Origin: Chloroflexota bacterium
GTDB taxonomy: Bacteria; Chloroflexota; Anaerolineae; Anaerolineales; UBA4823
Assembly: GCA_049325275.1 (NCBI GenBank)
Contig: JBMOLU010000009.1
Location: 45,103-109,102 of the forward strand
Length of the DNA: 64,000 nucleotides
Reading direction: 5' to 3'
Shown: positions 56,767 to 60,942 of the stretch, piece by piece
Numbering within the stretch: the first letter of the stretch is position 1
How the letters are laid out: each line of letters opens with the position of its first letter
Made by a program: the position numbers and the translations under genes
Notes under the pieces: model-generated
What the model saw: the letters and a program-made list of their open reading frames with translations, nothing else
The model's database searches: none
What the model was told of the DNA's origin: nothing

Positions 56767-58242
56767 TCAGGAGGGGGATAAACCTGGGGTGCGGGTGTGC
56801 CAATCGGTGGCCTGTTGGTAGACGTGGGCTGTTTTGAGCAGCAGGTCCTCACGGAAGTGAGGTCCCATGAGCTGCATCCCGACCGGCAGGCCGGCGGCGT
56901 CGAAGCCGACCGGAAACGAGATGCCCGGCACACCGGCGAGATTGGCCGGCAGGGTGAAAACATCTTCCAGGTACATCGCCAATGGGTCATCCCCATGTGC
57001 GCCGATTTCGAAGGCCGTGGTCGGGGCCACAGGTGAGGCGATGACATCCACCTGCTCGAAAGCCTTGAGAAAATCTTGCCTGATCAGGGCCCGCACCTTT
57101 TGGGCCTGGCCGTAGTAAGCGTCATAGTAGCCTGCCGAAAGTGCGTACGTGCCGAGCATGATACGCCGCTTGACCTCGGCGCCGAAGCGCTCGCCGCGCG
57201 TGTTGCGGAAGAGTTCCCACAGGGCATCGCCGTCGGCACGCGGGCCATAACGAACGCCGTCATAACGCGCCAGGTTGGCCGATGCTTCTGCCGGGGCAAT
57301 CAAGTAATAGACGGGCACGGCGTATTCAGTGTGCGGCAAGCGGATGGGATGGATGCTCGCGCCCTGCGACTCCAGCACCGCAATCGCCTGGCGCACGCCC
57401 GTTTCGACATCTGCCTGGATGCCGCTGATGAAATATTCCTGTGGCACGCCGACGCGCAGCCCGGCCAGGGAAACCGGGCCCTGTAAGTCGACTTGCACCA
57501 CGGGGATGTCCGGCGTGGTCATATCCAATGGATCGTGCCCGGCAATGACGGAAAACAGCAGGGCCACATCTTCGGCCGTCCGGGCAATCGGCCCAATCGC
57601 ATCGAGCGAGGAGCCGTACGCCACCAGGCCGTAGCGCGAAACACGCCCGTAGGTCGGCTTCAGCCCGGTCACGCCGCAGAAGGAAGCCGGTTGGCGGACG
57701 CTACCACCCGTGTCGCTGCCCAGGGCCGCGGGCACCTGGCGGGCCGCCACCGCAGCAGCGCTGCCACCGCTTGAACCGCCCGGCACGCGCCTCACATCCC
57801 AGGGATTGTGCGTCACCCCGTACGCAGAATTTTCCGTCGATGACCCCATGGCAAACTCATCCGTATTGGTCTTCCCAACGATCACGGCTCCGGCGTGGCG
57901 CAGACGTTCAATCGCGGTGGCGTTGTAAGGAGGTGTGAAATTCTCCAGGATGCGTGAACCGCAGGTACAACGCACGTCTTTGACGCAAATCACATCTTTG
58001 ATCGCCAGGGGCAGACCCATCAGCGGCTGCAAATGCGCGTCGGCGTCACGCCGCCAGGCAGCGATTTGCCGGTCAGCTTCGTCGGCCTGGGCCAGGGCCT
58101 GCTCTGCTGTAACGGTAAGAAAAGCGTTCAGGGTTGGATCGCTGCGCTCGATCTGAGCGAGGCAGGCTTGCGTCAATTCACGGCTGGAAACTTCGCCACT
58201 TGCGATAGAAGTAATGGATTCGGAGAGCGTTGGAAGGGTCAT
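56767..58242 (-). CDS. gatA: Asp/Glu-tRNA amidotransferase subunit A
   Basis: GKTNTDEFAMGSSTENS, GGSSGGS, GSDTGGSVRQP, EVKRRIMLGTYALSAGYYDAYY. Confidence 0.96.
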   Translation of the reverse strand: MTLPTLSESITSIASGEVSSRELTQACLAQIERSDPTLNAFLTVTAEQALAQADEADRQIAAWRRDADAHLQPLMGLPLAIKDVICVKDVRCTCGSRILENFTPPYNATAIERLRHAGAVIVGKTNTDEFAMGSSTENSAYGVTHNPWDVRRVPGGSSGGSAAAVAARQVPAALGSDTGGSVRQPASFCGVTGLKPTYGRVSRYGLVAYGSSLDAIGPIARTAEDVALLFSVIAGHDPLDMTTPDIPVVQVDLQGPVSLAGLRVGVPQEYFISGIQADVETGVRQAIAVLESQGASIHPIRLPHTEYAVPVYYLIAPAEASANLARYDGVRYGPRADGDALWELFRNTRGERFGAEVKRRIMLGTYALSAGYYDAYYGQAQKVRALIRQDFLKAFEQVDVIASPVAPTTAFEIGAHGDDPLAMYLEDVFTLPANLAGVPGISFPVGFDAAGLPVGMQLMGPHFREDLLLKTAHVYQQATDWHTRTPGLSPS

Positions 58243-58306
58243 GAGCGGAAAAAGTGAAAGTTGATAGGTGATGGGCGCCGGCGATAAGGCCCGACGTCCT
58301 TTTGTC

Positions 58307-58591
58307 TCACTCGAAGACGGGCGGGATACGAAACTGCTCGTTTTCGACGGCCGGCGCGTTGCGCAGCAAATCTTCACGCAACAGGCCCGGGCGAGGAATA
58401 TCCGGGCGTAAAGCCGTGGGGATGGCCGTCTCCGTTGAAGCGTCTGCACGGATTGTTACCGTTTGCAGACGGACGAAGTGTTCGAGAATGGCCGAGAGCT
58501 GCTCGCTGTAGTGGGCGACCTCTTCGTCACTCAGTTTGAGACGGGCCAGGTGGGCAATGTGTTGGACTTCGGAAGGGGTAATGGTGGTCAT
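58307..58591 (-). CDS. gatC: Asp/Glu-tRNA amidotransferase subunit C
   Basis: EVQHIAHLARL, LRPD, LRNAP, FRIPPVFE. Confidence 0.92.
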   Translation of the reverse strand: MTTITPSEVQHIAHLARLKLSDEEVAHYSEQLSAILEHFVRLQTVTIRADASTETAIPTALRPDIPRPGLLREDLLRNAPAVENEQFRIPPVFE

Positions 58592-58628
58592 GGTTTGATT
58601 ATACCGTAGGGTTGAAGGTTGCAGGGTG

Positions 58629-59621
58629 TCACGCATCCGCCCATTCGGCGGTATACCAGCGCAGGTACTGTTCGATGTGCACACGCCAGTAGTCTTCATT
58701 GTGATCCCCGACAAAGAGATAAAACTCGTGGGGAACGCGCAGGCGCGTCAGGAGGCCTTCGAAGCCCAGTGCAGAATCGCTGATCTCCGGACGGTCGCTG
58801 TCGCCGAGGTCAACGAAAAAGCGCGGCATGGCTTCGGAAGGGATCTCCTCTAGCCAGCCGCGAATGGATGAAGCATCATCCCAAAAAATAGCCGCACTGT
58901 GCGCGCCGACCGCCGAGAAACTTTGCCAGTATTGAATTCCAAGATGCAACGCCCAACTGCCGCCGCGCGACAAGCCGCCGATGGCGCGGAAAGTGCGTTC
59001 TGGACGCGTGCGGTACTGCGCATCGATTGCTGGGATGAGCGTATCCATGACTGCCTGCCCGAAGGGATCGCGTTCCGGCTGGTTCCATAAGCGGTCGCGC
59101 GGCATGACGATGATTACCGGGGCGATCTCACCGGCACGGATCAAGCGGTCGGCGGCTTCGTCCACGCCCAGGCGATCCCATTGATCGTCGGTAAAGTACT
59201 GCCCGTGAATCAGGTAAAGCACCGGATACCGCGCCTGGCTGTGCTCCTGGTAGCAGGGTGGCAAATACACCCGGTACGCCAGGTCCTCCGCCAACATCTC
59301 GGCGGGCACTGCTGTCACAAGTATCTCGCCATCGTGCTGCAAACAGGTTTCGGGAGAAGCGGTAGGCGTTGGCGTTGGGTGATGGGTTCGCGTCAGGAAG
59401 GCCGTGGGGGTGAAGGTTGCCGTTGGCGGCATGGGGGTTGGGCTTACCGCCGCCGTTGGGGAAACCGTTGGCGGCAGCGAAACAGCAATATCGAGCGCTA
59501 CGGGCGGCTTGCGGGTGGGCAGTTCAGCCTCCCCCACAGCACAGGCTGCCAGGCCCCACAACAGGAACAAGAGTCCCAACCCCACCACCCGAGGATCGCG
59601 TCGTCTCCTGGCCTTTGTCAT
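58629..59621 (-). CDS. Esterase family lipoprotein
   Basis: LAAC lipobox, VYLPP.Y, YPVLYLIHG, GLSRGG, H..YW. Confidence 0.88.
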   Translation of the reverse strand: MTKARRRRDPRVVGLGLLFLLWGLAACAVGEAELPTRKPPVALDIAVSLPPTVSPTAAVSPTPMPPTATFTPTAFLTRTHHPTPTPTASPETCLQHDGEILVTAVPAEMLAEDLAYRVYLPPCYQEHSQARYPVLYLIHGQYFTDDQWDRLGVDEAADRLIRAGEIAPVIIVMPRDRLWNQPERDPFGQAVMDTLIPAIDAQYRTRPERTFRAIGGLSRGGSWALHLGIQYWQSFSAVGAHSAAIFWDDASSIRGWLEEIPSEAMPRFFVDLGDSDRPEISDSALGFEGLLTRLRVPHEFYLFVGDHNEDYWRVHIEQYLRWYTAEWADA

Positions 59622-59651
59622 AAAGGGAGTCTACCAGAAAATTAAAGCCGG

Positions 59652-59679
59652 TTGACATTTGCTTTTCCGGCGCGATAAT
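59652..59679 (+). promoter_or_regulatory. Sigma70-type promoter for the aptamer RNA
   Basis: TTGACA-N16-GATAAT immediately before the 5' pairing strand ACACTC. Confidence 0.7.
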
Positions 59680-59691
59680 GAAAATACACTC

Positions 59692-59975
59692 CGACAAAAA
59701 GCAAAACCGGTGAAAACCGGCGACGCAAAGCCACAGGGTCTAAAGTCTGCGAAAAAGGTCGAAAATTATTTCCTGATTCGCGCTTAAGCTGGATGCCTCT
59801 GAAAAGACCAGCCTTTGGCGGTTAGACTTGGCGAGCTAACCGGAGCATAAAAGAGGAAGTAACAGAATAGACTGCAAGGATGTTTGAAACAAAATTCAAA
59901 AACAGGTGTTGAAAAGCCTGTTTCACTTTGTTGAAAACACACCTGCCGCAAAAGGATCAGACAGCCGGCTACCGA
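59692..59975 (+). ncRNA. GEMM-I cyclic dinucleotide aptamer 1, A20 variant with ~210-nt P3 insertion
   Basis: aGCAAAACCGGT-GAAA-ACCGGCGACGCAAAGCCACAGGGTCTAA ... GACAGCCGGCTACCGAA. Confidence 0.75.
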
Positions 59976-60057
59976 AAAAGGCAAACCCAGCGAAAGCTGG
60001 CGGCGCAGAGTCATGGGTCTAACGTCTGTAAGGCGACCAAGATTGCCAGACCAACCG
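59973..60057 (+). ncRNA. c-di-GMP-I aptamer 2
   Basis: GGCAAACCCAGC-GAAA-GCTGGCGGCGCAGAGTCATGGGTCTAA..GATTGCCAGACCAACCG. Confidence 0.75.
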
Positions 60058-60163
60058 AAAGGCAAACCCGGTGAAAACCGGCGGCGCAAAGCCATGGGTC
60101 TAACGTCATAGAGAAATGACCAGCGAACGAAAGTTCGACGACTGCCAGGCTACCGAAGAGTGT
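60056..60163 (+). ncRNA. c-di-GMP-I aptamer 3
   Basis: GGCAAACCCGGT-GAAA-ACCGGCGGCGCAAAGCCATGGGTCTAA..GACTGCCAGGCTACCGAA. Confidence 0.85.
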
Positions 60164-60173
60164 TTCCACACCC

Positions 60174-60209
60174 AAAAACGCACAGGTTTTGAGACCTGTG
60201 CGTTTTTTT
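60174..60209. terminator. Intrinsic terminator, probably bidirectional
   Basis: aaaaacgcacaggt-tttgag-acctgtgcgttttttt. Confidence 0.88.
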
Positions 60210-60225
60210 ATTGCTGGGTCTTTCC

Positions 60226-60942
60226 TTAACGGCAGTACCGCATCAGGGCATCATGTTTGTGCACGGTAATACGTCCGTCGGCATCGATCGACGTAATCCC
60301 CAGCTGCTTGAACGTGACCATCACCTGGTTGACCCGCTTGCGTGAGGCGCCGACCAGATCTGCAATGTCGCTTTGGGTGAGGAAAATAGGAATCTTTATC
60401 TCACCGTTGCTGTTGCAGTGCCCATACTTTTCGGCAAATGCCAGGAGCTGACGCGCCACGCGCCCATACACATCGAGCGTGGCCAACGCCTGAATCAGTT
60501 CATTGGCCAGGCGCACCCGGTTGGAAAGAATGCGCACCAGGTTGAGCGAAAGCTCCGGAAAGCGATGCAACGCATCCTGAAAGGTCGGCCGATCCATCCA
60601 CAGCAAGGTCGATTCCTCGAGGGTCAGCACACTGGCCGAACGGCCGGCGGTGTCTACCAGGCTCATTTCGCCCACCGTATCGCCGGCGCCCAAGATGGCC
60701 AGCACCACGTCGCTCCCACCGACCTGCTCGATGTGAATTTTGACCGTCCCCCGCAAGATGATATAGACCAGTTCTCCGGGGGTATCGGCGGTGATGATAT
60801 TCGTCCCCGGGGGGAACGTCTTGTAACGCAGTTGGCCGGCCAGCCAGATGAGTTGTGAGGTTTCCAGGCCCTGGAACAGGGGAACTTCCGCCAAAGCTTT
60901 TGGCGAAACGATGGTTTGCGTGATTGCAGAATTCAAGAACAT
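60226..60942 (-). CDS. Crp/Fnr family regulator with cNMP-binding domain
   Basis: VPLFQGL, GEMSL..RSASV, C-terminal HTH LTQSDIADLVGASRKRVN. Confidence 0.93.
   Translation of the reverse strand: MFLNSAITQTIVSPKALAEVPLFQGLETSQLIWLAGQLRYKTFPPGTNIITADTPGELVYIILRGTVKIHIEQVGGSDVVLAILGAGDTVGEMSLVDTAGRSASVLTLEESTLLWMDRPTFQDALHRFPELSLNLVRILSNRVRLANELIQALATLDVYGRVARQLLAFAEKYGHCNSNGEIKIPIFLTQSDIADLVGASRKRVNQVMVTFKQLGITSIDADGRITVHKHDALMRYCR

Follow-up and report, generated by a model that had tools for sequence, protein, structure and literature searches.

What could an RNA with three cyclic-dinucleotide aptamers do when no gene follows it? Aptamers of riboswitches are nearly always interpreted as elements that regulate in cis, and the question is raised by positions 59652 to 60209 of a 64,000-nucleotide (nt) stretch of DNA, hereafter the window, from a Chloroflexota bacterium (Anaerolineales; UBA4823; GCA_049325275.1, contig JBMOLU010000009.1, positions 45,103-109,102 of the forward strand). 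In an initial annotation, this region was proposed to encode a stand-alone RNA of three GEMM-I aptamers that buffers or sequesters a second messenger, cyclic di-GMP (c-di-GMP) or cyclic GMP-AMP (cGAMP). Our comparative analysis showed that the region is a promoter-to-terminator unit, in which three GEMM-I folds and a single closing helix are kept by covariation, and that the unit has no constant neighbour. With moderate confidence, structural claims included, we read it as an independent non-coding RNA (ncRNA) gene, whose probably abundant product would bind three cyclic dinucleotides and act as a buffer, a sponge or a trans-acting sensor. Throughout, the codes G and L designate the genomes and loci examined, and g and f the genera and families; G000 is the window's genome, f1 its family and g1 its genus.

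Three GEMM-I aptamers within one closing helix

A search with all 4,227 Rfam families over the whole window returned exactly three matches at the gathering level, all to RF01051 (c-di-GMP-I) and all on the + strand, at 59690-59800 (37.7 bits), 59970-60050 (50.4 bits) and 60051-60157 (64.2 bits). Each exceeded the gathering score of 35, and the three aptamers in series described by the initial annotation were thus recovered by the search it had suggested. Beyond these, a permissive Rfam scan of 59550-60300 gave only weaker matches from the same clan and noise, with no other family inside the insertion described below.

The 5' half of aptamer slot 1 (59694-59745, + strand, from the Rfam alignment) was characterized by an A-rich junction, an A at position 20 (59700) and a GC pair (59701-59702), followed by the P1a hairpin with its GAAA-type loop (59707-59720), A47 (59727) and the 5' strand of P1b with a UCUAAAG receptor-like motif (59729-59745). 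Alignment with relatives placed an insertion of about 214 nt, an expansion segment, in the distal P1b loop (~59746-59959). The 3' strand of slot 1 (GAC AG CCGGCU) and the first junction, J1 (A, C92 at 59972, CG), followed at 59960-59974, and J1 agreed with short forms of about 280 nt found in relatives. By homology with these short forms, aptamer 1 spans 59690-59974 and does not end at 59800; the placement of its 3' strand at 59785-59800 by Rfam is an artefact of the insertion. This insertion was kept in a genome of the same genus (G002), shorter in another (G001) and missing from the short forms. Slot 2 (59975-60050, + strand), which corresponds to the second match, carried a G at position 20 (59980). 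Slot 3 (60051-60157, + strand), corresponding to the third, carried a G at position 20 (60061), C92 at 60153 and a 30-nt extension of the P1b loop, and scored 57.5 bits against the Rfam GGC variant model, under the cut-off of that model. Across members of the family, GAAA-type P1a loops and UCUAA motifs were visible, with an AAAA loop in slot 2 of some short forms. Individual aptamers were spaced by 0-10 nt and had no expression platforms of their own, and the junctions between slots, of about 12-20 nt, carried only a near-invariant CCGA.

The three aptamers are enclosed by an outer helix, formed on the + strand by ACACUC plus CG (59686-59693) and by CG, an AA bulge and GAGUGU (60154-60163). 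Its two sides are the 5' strand of slot 1 and the 3' strand of slot 3, and it corresponds to the GEMM-I P1 as drawn in the Rfam GGC variant model. The fold of 59684-60210 (527 nt) had a z-score of -4.47, with none of 100 shuffles as stable, and both the minimum free energy structure and the centroid contained the end-to-end helix and the terminator. The pairing of ACACTC (59686-59691) with GAGTGT (60158-60163), by which the whole RNA had been thought to be closed, was therefore borne out by both structures as well as by covariation in relatives. A small alternative hairpin, GUGU with loop UUCC and ACAC (60160-60171, + strand), overlaps the 3' strand of P1 and is a weak candidate (three sequences, one compensatory change); its equivalent in G001 is GUGG/CCAC.

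When seven short forms were folded with RNAalifold and no structure was supplied, the helix from first to last strand again enclosed the three aptamers, with compensatory change in 27 of the 61 pairs. The curated structure of these seven was 94.8% paired, versus 23-37% when partners were slid by 1-3 columns. From it, a covariance model (R1) was built, to which 40 loci were aligned (alignment A3); the rows of the window, L017 and L012 were mis-registered at one end due to their insertions and were read by eye, leaving 37 cleanly aligned loci. On A3, 98.9% of the cells of the outer helix were paired across the 40 rows, with both-side changes in five of the seven modelled pairs, and helices 2-12 were paired at 85-100% with many double changes, which shows that the two-hairpin GEMM-I fold is kept by compensatory change. 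For the whole structure, 94.3% of cells were paired, versus 21-41% with slid partners, and double changes were found in 40 of the 63 pairs, a number reached by none of 500 shuffles, although the rows were fitted to R1 and about 20 of the 40 come from one genus, so that they are not independent.

Since related rows make independent events seem more numerous than they are, the six types of outer helix provide a fairer measure than pair counts. These were UUGCUC/GAGCAA; GCACUC/GAGUGC; ACACUC/GAGUGU, found in the window; GCAUCC/GGAUGC, found in genus g15; CAACGCUC/GAGCGUUG, found in g7 and g63; and a continuous helix of 14 base pairs (bp), AAAAGCACUCUUUG/CAAAGAGUGCUUUU, found in g4, in which UUUG/CAAA replaced the usual CG..CG-AA part. 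No extended helix closing any single slot was found in the junction alignment of the aligned members. A P1 and an expression platform belonging to each aptamer, as in the pseudo-cooperative Bc3-5 array, were likewise not observed, the sole extended covarying closing helix being the one that joins the first and last strands.

Two further observations concern this helix. In g4 (L013:1440-1860 on the - strand, L094 and L098), a U run directly followed the 14-bp helix, and UUUG and CAAA took the place of the CCGA of the first and last junctions; this helix, which closes an RNA of about 370 nt, could itself serve as a terminator stem. In the window, R1 aligned the 5' strand of P1 to 59920-59931 (UUUCACUUUG), a segment of the insertion that can also pair with the 3' strand of P1. 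This segment was missing from G002, and the pairing is probably due to chance.

A transcription unit conserved among relatives without a constant neighbour

As the initial annotation had suggested, similar orphan arrays were searched for in relatives, and the array recurred in related genomes, metagenome-assembled genomes (MAGs) and metagenome contigs. The triple-aptamer unit was found at 40 loci in three families (37 cleanly aligned loci, the window and two loci read by hand), with full-length R1 matches of 157-316 bits in the 37. Both other g1 genomes held the array, that of G002 being 75% identical over nearly its full length and that of G001 more diverged. RF01051 matches above the gathering score numbered three each in G001 and L026, two in G002 and two to three per metagenome locus. 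Two size classes were observed: short forms of about 280 nt, consisting of three abutting aptamers alone, and long forms of 420-520 nt, in which a distal P1b loop carries an insertion. This loop belonged to slot 1 in the window, G001, G002, L029/L044/L053 and L013, and to slot 3 in L012, and the sequence of the insertion also differed.

A scan of 185,579 species genomes with a 22-nt signature gave three records (MAGs of an uncultured Chloroflexia, Anaerolineales and Anaerolineaceae), all three with the unit. With a 20-nt signature, 31 loci were identified in metagenome contigs, of which 9 held the complete unit, 3 were cut by a contig end and 19 had no aptamer core. Within f1 (137 genomes), 113 genomes had some GEMM-I aptamer, and closed triples were verified in at least 30: 25 through L075-L099 (157-245 bits, P1 checked), the three of g1, and G004 and G011 by eye. 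This count is a lower bound, as members with large insertions score lower (128.6 bits for the window). A survey of the 137 genomes with a 20-nt 5' signature at two mismatches or fewer found 4 clear cases (0-1 mismatch), or 12 including those with two mismatches; it missed most members because their 5' strands differ, and the covariance model was used in its place.

Beyond f1, a class sample of 151 genomes including the window's, searched with R1 at E <= 1e-30, gave matches outside G000 only in family f15, where G270 and G230 were full-length high scorers and G038 was also matched. All three were matched again in a phylum sample of 151 genomes, along with G364, likewise of f15; G038 (124.7 bits) and G364 (110.5 bits) were not counted as members. 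In the order sample, members were confirmed in f1, f15 (G270 and G230) and f12 (G547), and none of the matches of 104-126 bits in f7, f9 and f11 was counted. Overall, the triple-aptamer RNA was confined to one order among the genomes searched.

Some R1 matches of 104-145 bits were set aside. Those in G016:C338 (L100), G119 (L101), G125 (L103) and G123 (L104) were ordinary spaced doublets, as judged from their spacing and missing P1, and that in G465 (L111) was not a member. Matches in G101:C47, G101:C51, G100:C45, G100:C90, G120, G121, G122, G124, G497, G525 and G544, as well as the second match in G270, were left uncounted.

Transcription signals accompanied the unit in the window and in its relatives. 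A sigma-70-type promoter (59652-59679, + strand), with -35 box TTGACA (59652-59657), a 16-nt spacer and -10 box GATAAT (59674-59679), agreed with the consensus at 11 of 12 positions; shuffles led us to expect 0.7 promoter-like sites in the region, and two were found. The predicted start, about 7 nt past the -10 box, is the first base of the outer helix. An intrinsic terminator (60174-60209, + strand, from a terminator scan and the fold) consisted of a 15-bp stem and a 4-nt loop, called at 60174-60207, and a T run. Both signals had been described in the initial annotation, and both were recovered. Across relatives, a TTGAC or TTGAA box, about 17 nt and an ATAAT-type box at a constant distance (~7 nt) before the 5' strand were read by eye at 13 of 13 and 11 of 11 loci. 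At every locus read in this way, the 3' strand of P1 was followed by an immediate U run and/or, no more than about 60 nt on, by a hairpin with a U run.

The genes on either side of the window locus were also as first annotated. A divergent upstream gene (58629-59621, - strand) encodes an Esterase family protein according to Pfam, and a convergent downstream gene (60226-60942, - strand) encodes a crp-family protein with cNMP_binding and HTH_Crp_2 domains, so that the locus has no same-strand gene. An A run precedes the terminator stem and a T run follows it; the terminator may thus also serve the crp-family gene. The open reading frames (ORFs) upstream of the esterase gene (56767-58714, - strand) resembled gatA and gatC, for amidotransferase subunits, when their translations were inspected by eye. 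Within the RNA, the earlier statement that only ATG ORFs of about 10 codons are present was inaccurate: ATG ORFs of 32 (60013-60111) and 37 amino acids (60116-60229) and TTG/GTG ORFs of 38-48 amino acids were found on the + strand. These small ORFs cross the aptamer cores, where insertions and deletions distinguish relatives.

Flanks were read for 27 loci, one of which ends with its contig, leaving 26 readable. The downstream neighbour was convergent at 10 of these (window, L028, L038, L077, L078, L081, L083, L086, L099 and L017), and the other 16 were followed by unrelated same-strand genes; association with one same-strand gene, as expected for a cis riboswitch, was therefore not observed. 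Besides the crp-family gene of the window, ten downstream ORFs were tested with Pfam. Same-strand ORFs matched RuvB, methylmalonyl-CoA mutase, thiamin pyrophosphokinase and YqeY, and convergent ORFs matched Glyoxalase_2, HTH_34 and, below threshold, HHH_5 (L017). By eye, several same-strand genes had a TATAAT-type box of their own immediately ahead of the start codon or a complete -35/-10 pair. With promoter and terminator kept and neighbours varying, the RNA forms its own transcription unit with no conserved downstream ORF, as does merRNA, discussed below.

Other features of these neighbourhoods were noted. In the short-form group, the site between efflux genes and ruvB-DUF-queA-like ORFs was syntenic in four loci, which is taken as shared ancestry rather than regulation. 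Downstream ruvB-like and methylmalonyl-CoA mutase genes (L026:2690-2715; L034, L052, L044 and L053) had TATAAT a few bases before the start codon, which suggests that mRNAs in these Chloroflexi have very short leaders or none. In g7 and g63 (L086:967-1224, L078:2059-2315, L077:337-511, L080:2119-2424 and L091:915-1239), the RNA adjoined a divergent upstream cluster of tRNA-Phe, tRNA-Gly and usually tRNA-Cys, and in L078 a tRNA-Glu converged on it. In G001 only, a candidate gene of 72 codons (L008:2125-2343, + strand), encoding a very hydrophobic small protein and having its own strong terminator, was located about 115 nt past the terminator of the RNA.

Family f1 also contains GEMM-I aptamers of other arrangements. 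G000 carries two single ones, at G000:C80:152072-152160 (+ strand; L001:1501-1589) and G000:C85:48350-48436 (- strand; L003), which scored 78.7 and 53.9 bits. In contrast to the triple unit, a long same-strand ORF (473 and 443 amino acids, open-ended) with a hydrophobic, signal-like N-terminus began within about 90-170 nt of each, and both resemble classical cis riboswitches of genes for exported proteins. Ordinary doublets spaced by 174-197 nt and located before genes were also present in f1 and look different from the triple unit.

Ligand-pocket nucleotides and signal in RNA libraries

The ligand contacts described for c-di-GMP-I riboswitches are, in Vc2 numbering, G20, A47 and C92, G20 reading one guanine and C92 pairing with the other (PMC6140456). 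In the GEMM-Ib aptamers that bind cGAMP, A replaces G20, and RNAs with A20 are described as often bispecific (PMC6140456). We mapped this numbering from the consensus lines of the Rfam UAU and GGC variant models, with position 20 as the base before the paired GC, 47 as the first A after the closing GC and 92 as the first C of CCGA. The names of these two models are presumed to list positions 20, 47 and 92.

At the mapped positions, the window pockets were A20/A47/C92 in slot 1 and G20/A47/C92 in slots 2 and 3. The A before the GC pair of slot 1 was present at all 13 loci of one comparison. Among the 37 aligned members, the position-20 patterns of slots 1-3 were GAG (18), AAG (10), AGG (5), GGG (3) and AAC (1). 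Thus, A and G were mixed in 33 members, slot 1 and/or slot 2 had A20 in 34, and slot 3 had G in 36. This suggests that pockets of cGAMP type and of c-di-GMP type, differing in specificity, occur on one RNA, with a selectivity that cannot be read from sequence. Position 92 was mostly C; slot 1 had U there in L026 and L038 and A in several g7 members, and A was also found in slot 2 of g15. The loci with another base were L026, L038, L082, L085, L087, L089 and L096 in J1, and L075 and L076 in J2; these pockets may have yet other specificities, L026 and L038 combining U92 with A20 in slot 1. As for ligand supply, 16 GGDEF matches were found in G000, which favours the proposed function.

In a run index queried for 59600-60300, 20 of the 22 rows contained part of the region, 15 of them being RNA libraries from 14 studies, and none contained half of its words or more. 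Contigs from four metatranscriptomes (X2, X3, X10 and X11; four studies) were compared at 85% identity or more, and all four had contigs on 59696-60156. In X3, a 400-nt contig with a depth of 4,400 covered 59696-60091 with 12 differences and three gaps and was located wholly inside the RNA; in X2, a 678-nt contig covered 59703-60102. The insertion was covered throughout in X2 and X3, and not past about 59880-59917 in X10 and X11. In the insertion bins (59770-59880), which are not common to ordinary GEMM-I RNAs, depths reached about 1.2e4 in X3, 4.6e3-8.3e3 in X10 and 1.8e4-1.4e5 in X11, and were about 31 in X2. As for the flanks, no contig of the four metatranscriptomes was found on 59400-59658 and, beyond 60176, only one of depth 3, on crp in X2; as the contigs come from relatives with other flanks, this absence says nothing on transcript ends. 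Overall, these values hint that RNAs of the triple-aptamer family are very abundant, with no per-cell reference.

Buffering, regulation and known systems

We infer that transcription would begin with the first base of the outer helix, about 7 nt past the -10 box, and would yield a discrete transcript of about 524 nt (59686 to ~60209), in which a single P1 stem would enclose three abutting aptamers without platforms of their own. Such an RNA would bind up to three cyclic dinucleotides per molecule and act in trans, and ligand binding may stabilise a closed, nuclease-resistant form. Its likeliest role would be to buffer, store or sequester c-di-GMP and possibly 3'3'-cGAMP. Indeed, as the short forms are aptamers alone, selection seems to act on binding capacity and not on base-pairing; the apparent abundance of the RNA and the near absence of non-aptamer sequence in the short forms likewise favour buffering. 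That the RNA stands alone, with no gene to control, as first proposed, is strongly supported by the kept promoter, outer helix and terminator, by its varied and often convergent neighbours and by the deep metatranscriptome contigs. We put forward only tentatively a narrower version of this role, in which a dedicated, highly expressed RNA would serve solely to hold cyclic dinucleotides, with three pockets and one clasp, tuned to c-di-GMP and to an adenine-containing dinucleotide such as 3'3'-cGAMP. It would then buffer and cross-couple two second-messenger pools, releasing ligand once the clasp is open or the RNA is broken down.

Several points weigh against a buffer. At the 16 loci with a same-strand ORF, this ORF starts about 90-400 nt past the RNA, where readthrough could control it. 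Among the 10 convergent neighbours, the ORFs of L077, L099 and L038 may not be genes, since they matched no Pfam family, nor may that of L017, whose match was below threshold; the ORF of L086 was counted by orientation alone, without Pfam. Plain terminators usually drift in sequence. Here, the terminator stem was kept within groups, as CAGGGAUGAC...GUCAUCCCUG in five short forms (L034, L038, L046, L048 and L057) and as AUGAGCGG...CCGCUCAU in g7 (L081, L083, L086 and L078), where it shares GAGCG/CGCUC with the P1 strands; such group-wise conservation would fit an expression platform. A sponge would also require RNA copy numbers near ligand concentrations. No SMODS-type cyclase (PF18144) was matched in G000, and no cGAMP synthase was identified there. 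The RNA-library contigs are assembled, come from relatives (85-97% identity) and are not raw reads of this organism, so that ends, strand and level cannot be read from them; their depths are summed over organisms and inflated at cores common to GEMM-I RNAs, and DNA can occur in RNA libraries. Finally, the covariation counts on A3 carry the dependence among rows described above. The conserved terminator stems and the P1-competing small hairpin of g1 are left unexplained by a sponge, and they keep regulatory alternatives alive.

One such alternative is a ligand-responsive riboregulator, in which cyclic dinucleotides would open or close the outer helix and thereby gate either the stability of the RNA or its association with a partner, protein or RNA, as in a small RNA that contains a riboswitch. 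We consider it unlikely, while noting that it draws on the same structural evidence as the buffer. The A/G mix at position 20 kept in 33 of the 37 aligned members resembles signal integration more than plain capacity, the terminator-stem sequences are kept within groups, and trans-acting or ncRNA-embedded riboswitches are on record (PMC3627812). The variable insertions (59746-59959 in the window) could carry the effector part; they are kept within genera and covered by RNA-library contigs, but neither their sequence nor their location is constant, slot 1 carrying them in the window, L029 and L013 and slot 3 in L012. Moreover, the short forms of about 280 nt consist of three aptamers, P1 and a terminator, with no common single-stranded seed or extra domain, and no partner is known.

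In a cis- or antisense-acting attenuator, which we regard as improbable, the three aptamers would jointly control the terminator, and readthrough would regulate what lies downstream, in the window as antisense into the crp-family gene. The terminator directly follows the 3' strand of P1 at every locus, the usual place of an expression platform, and more than half of the readable loci have a same-strand downstream ORF (16 of 26). The terminator arms of g7 share GAGCG/CGCUC with P1, and in g1 the 3' strand of P1 can be drawn into the small hairpin instead. However, possible P1-overlapping pairings were seen only in g1 and g7 and measured 4-5 bp versus 9-15 bp for the terminator stems, most of which are clear of P1. 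Many members also have a U run right after P1 followed by a second hairpin terminator, an arrangement that resembles fail-safe termination. The downstream genes are either convergent (10 of 26), one of them a tRNA, or unrelated housekeeping genes, several of which have by eye a -10 box to themselves, and the RNA-library contigs on the RNA are short and very deep, with one of 400 nt wholly within it. The RNA converges on crp in the window and G002, that is, in only two of the three g1 genomes, so that the switch for antisense readthrough into crp suggested by the initial annotation is not its general role. The same annotation held that a same-strand gene after the terminator in relatives would make the locus a relic. 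The outcome was mixed: such genes exist at the 16 loci, but they are of differing housekeeping types. A former triple-tandem 5' leader, decaying after its gene was lost or inverted, would account for the lack of a same-strand gene in the window and for the low score of aptamer 1 (37.7 bits), yet this score results from the insertion rather than from decay. Differing downstream genes, several with a -10 box, and the convergent ones do not fit such a loss. Conservation over three families with compensatory changes in all helices, the kept promoter and terminator, and the deep matching contigs in RNA libraries make a relic hardly credible.

The closest precedent for a buffering RNA is merRNA of Bdellovibrio bacteriovorus, a massively expressed stand-alone RNA of 445 nt with a single c-di-GMP riboswitch, described as a proposed c-di-GMP store or sponge (Karunker et al. 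2013, PMC3627812). Both are stand-alone c-di-GMP aptamer RNAs with no conserved downstream ORF; as described there, merRNA has one riboswitch and is conserved only within Bdellovibrio, whereas the present RNA has three abutting aptamers, one closing helix and mixed A/G at position 20, and is found in three families of one Chloroflexota order. Tandem c-di-GMP-I riboswitches have been counted as 347 doublets and 12 triplets (Sherlock et al. 2022, PMC9481103), and Bc3-5 consists of three complete riboswitches in series in a 5' untranslated region (2016, PMC4759541). These resemble the present RNA in having three GEMM-I aptamers serially on one transcript (PMC4759541, PMC9481103). As presented there, they are filed as having multiple expression platforms and as pseudo-cooperative, in contrast to the single P1, single terminator, 0-10 nt spacing and lack of a constant downstream gene observed here. 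Chloroflexi are not named for the 12 triplets in the text of that survey, from which identity with the present RNA cannot be told (PMC9481103).

The GEMM-Ib riboswitches of Geobacter, which respond to 3'3'-cGAMP, have A for G20 as does slot 1 of the window, but are described as cis riboswitches before cytochrome, pilus and polysaccharide genes (PMC6140456, PMC6456294); reported selectivities of A20 aptamers range from bispecific to 1,200-fold (PMC6140456, PMC6456294). Tandem glycine riboswitches similarly combine several aptamers for one kind of ligand with a single output (PMC9481103). They control an adjacent ORF, whereas here there is no ORF and three aptamers lie within a helix from first to last strand. 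The trans-acting RNAs EutX/Rli55 and SreA contain one riboswitch aptamer beside an effector part, made up of protein-binding sites or a base-pairing region. They share with the present RNA an aptamer within a trans-acting ncRNA, and differ in that no effector part is evident in the short forms. In the openly searchable literature, the supplements of Sherlock et al. 2022 and PMC12452182 and subscription journals being outside this scope, we found no prior description of a stand-alone or single-P1 triple GEMM-I RNA, or of c-di-GMP riboswitches in Anaerolineae. Three abutting GEMM-I aptamers with a single P1, no expression platform and no target gene are thus an architecture not described in that literature.

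The idea of an aptamer RNA as a store so far rests on one speculative case, merRNA, described as conserved only within Bdellovibrio (PMC3627812). The present family adds comparative support, with 40 loci, three bacterial families and covariation in every helix. Its structure and its status as a gene are well supported, and its predicted function is directly testable on the short forms of about 280 nt, with which stoichiometry, cooperativity and ligand selectivity can be addressed in vitro.

Sludge, sediments and soils commonly harbour Anaerolineales. If the abundance suggested by the metatranscriptome contigs is real, the RNA would constitute a major sink of c-di-GMP and cGAMP in this order, and riboswitch censuses that assign each aptamer to the next gene would mis-annotate it. 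Should the tentative view of an RNA that solely holds cyclic dinucleotides be true, this family would represent the first case of a conserved RNA "second-messenger capacitor" with multiple sites and would give the sponge idea raised for merRNA an experimental footing.

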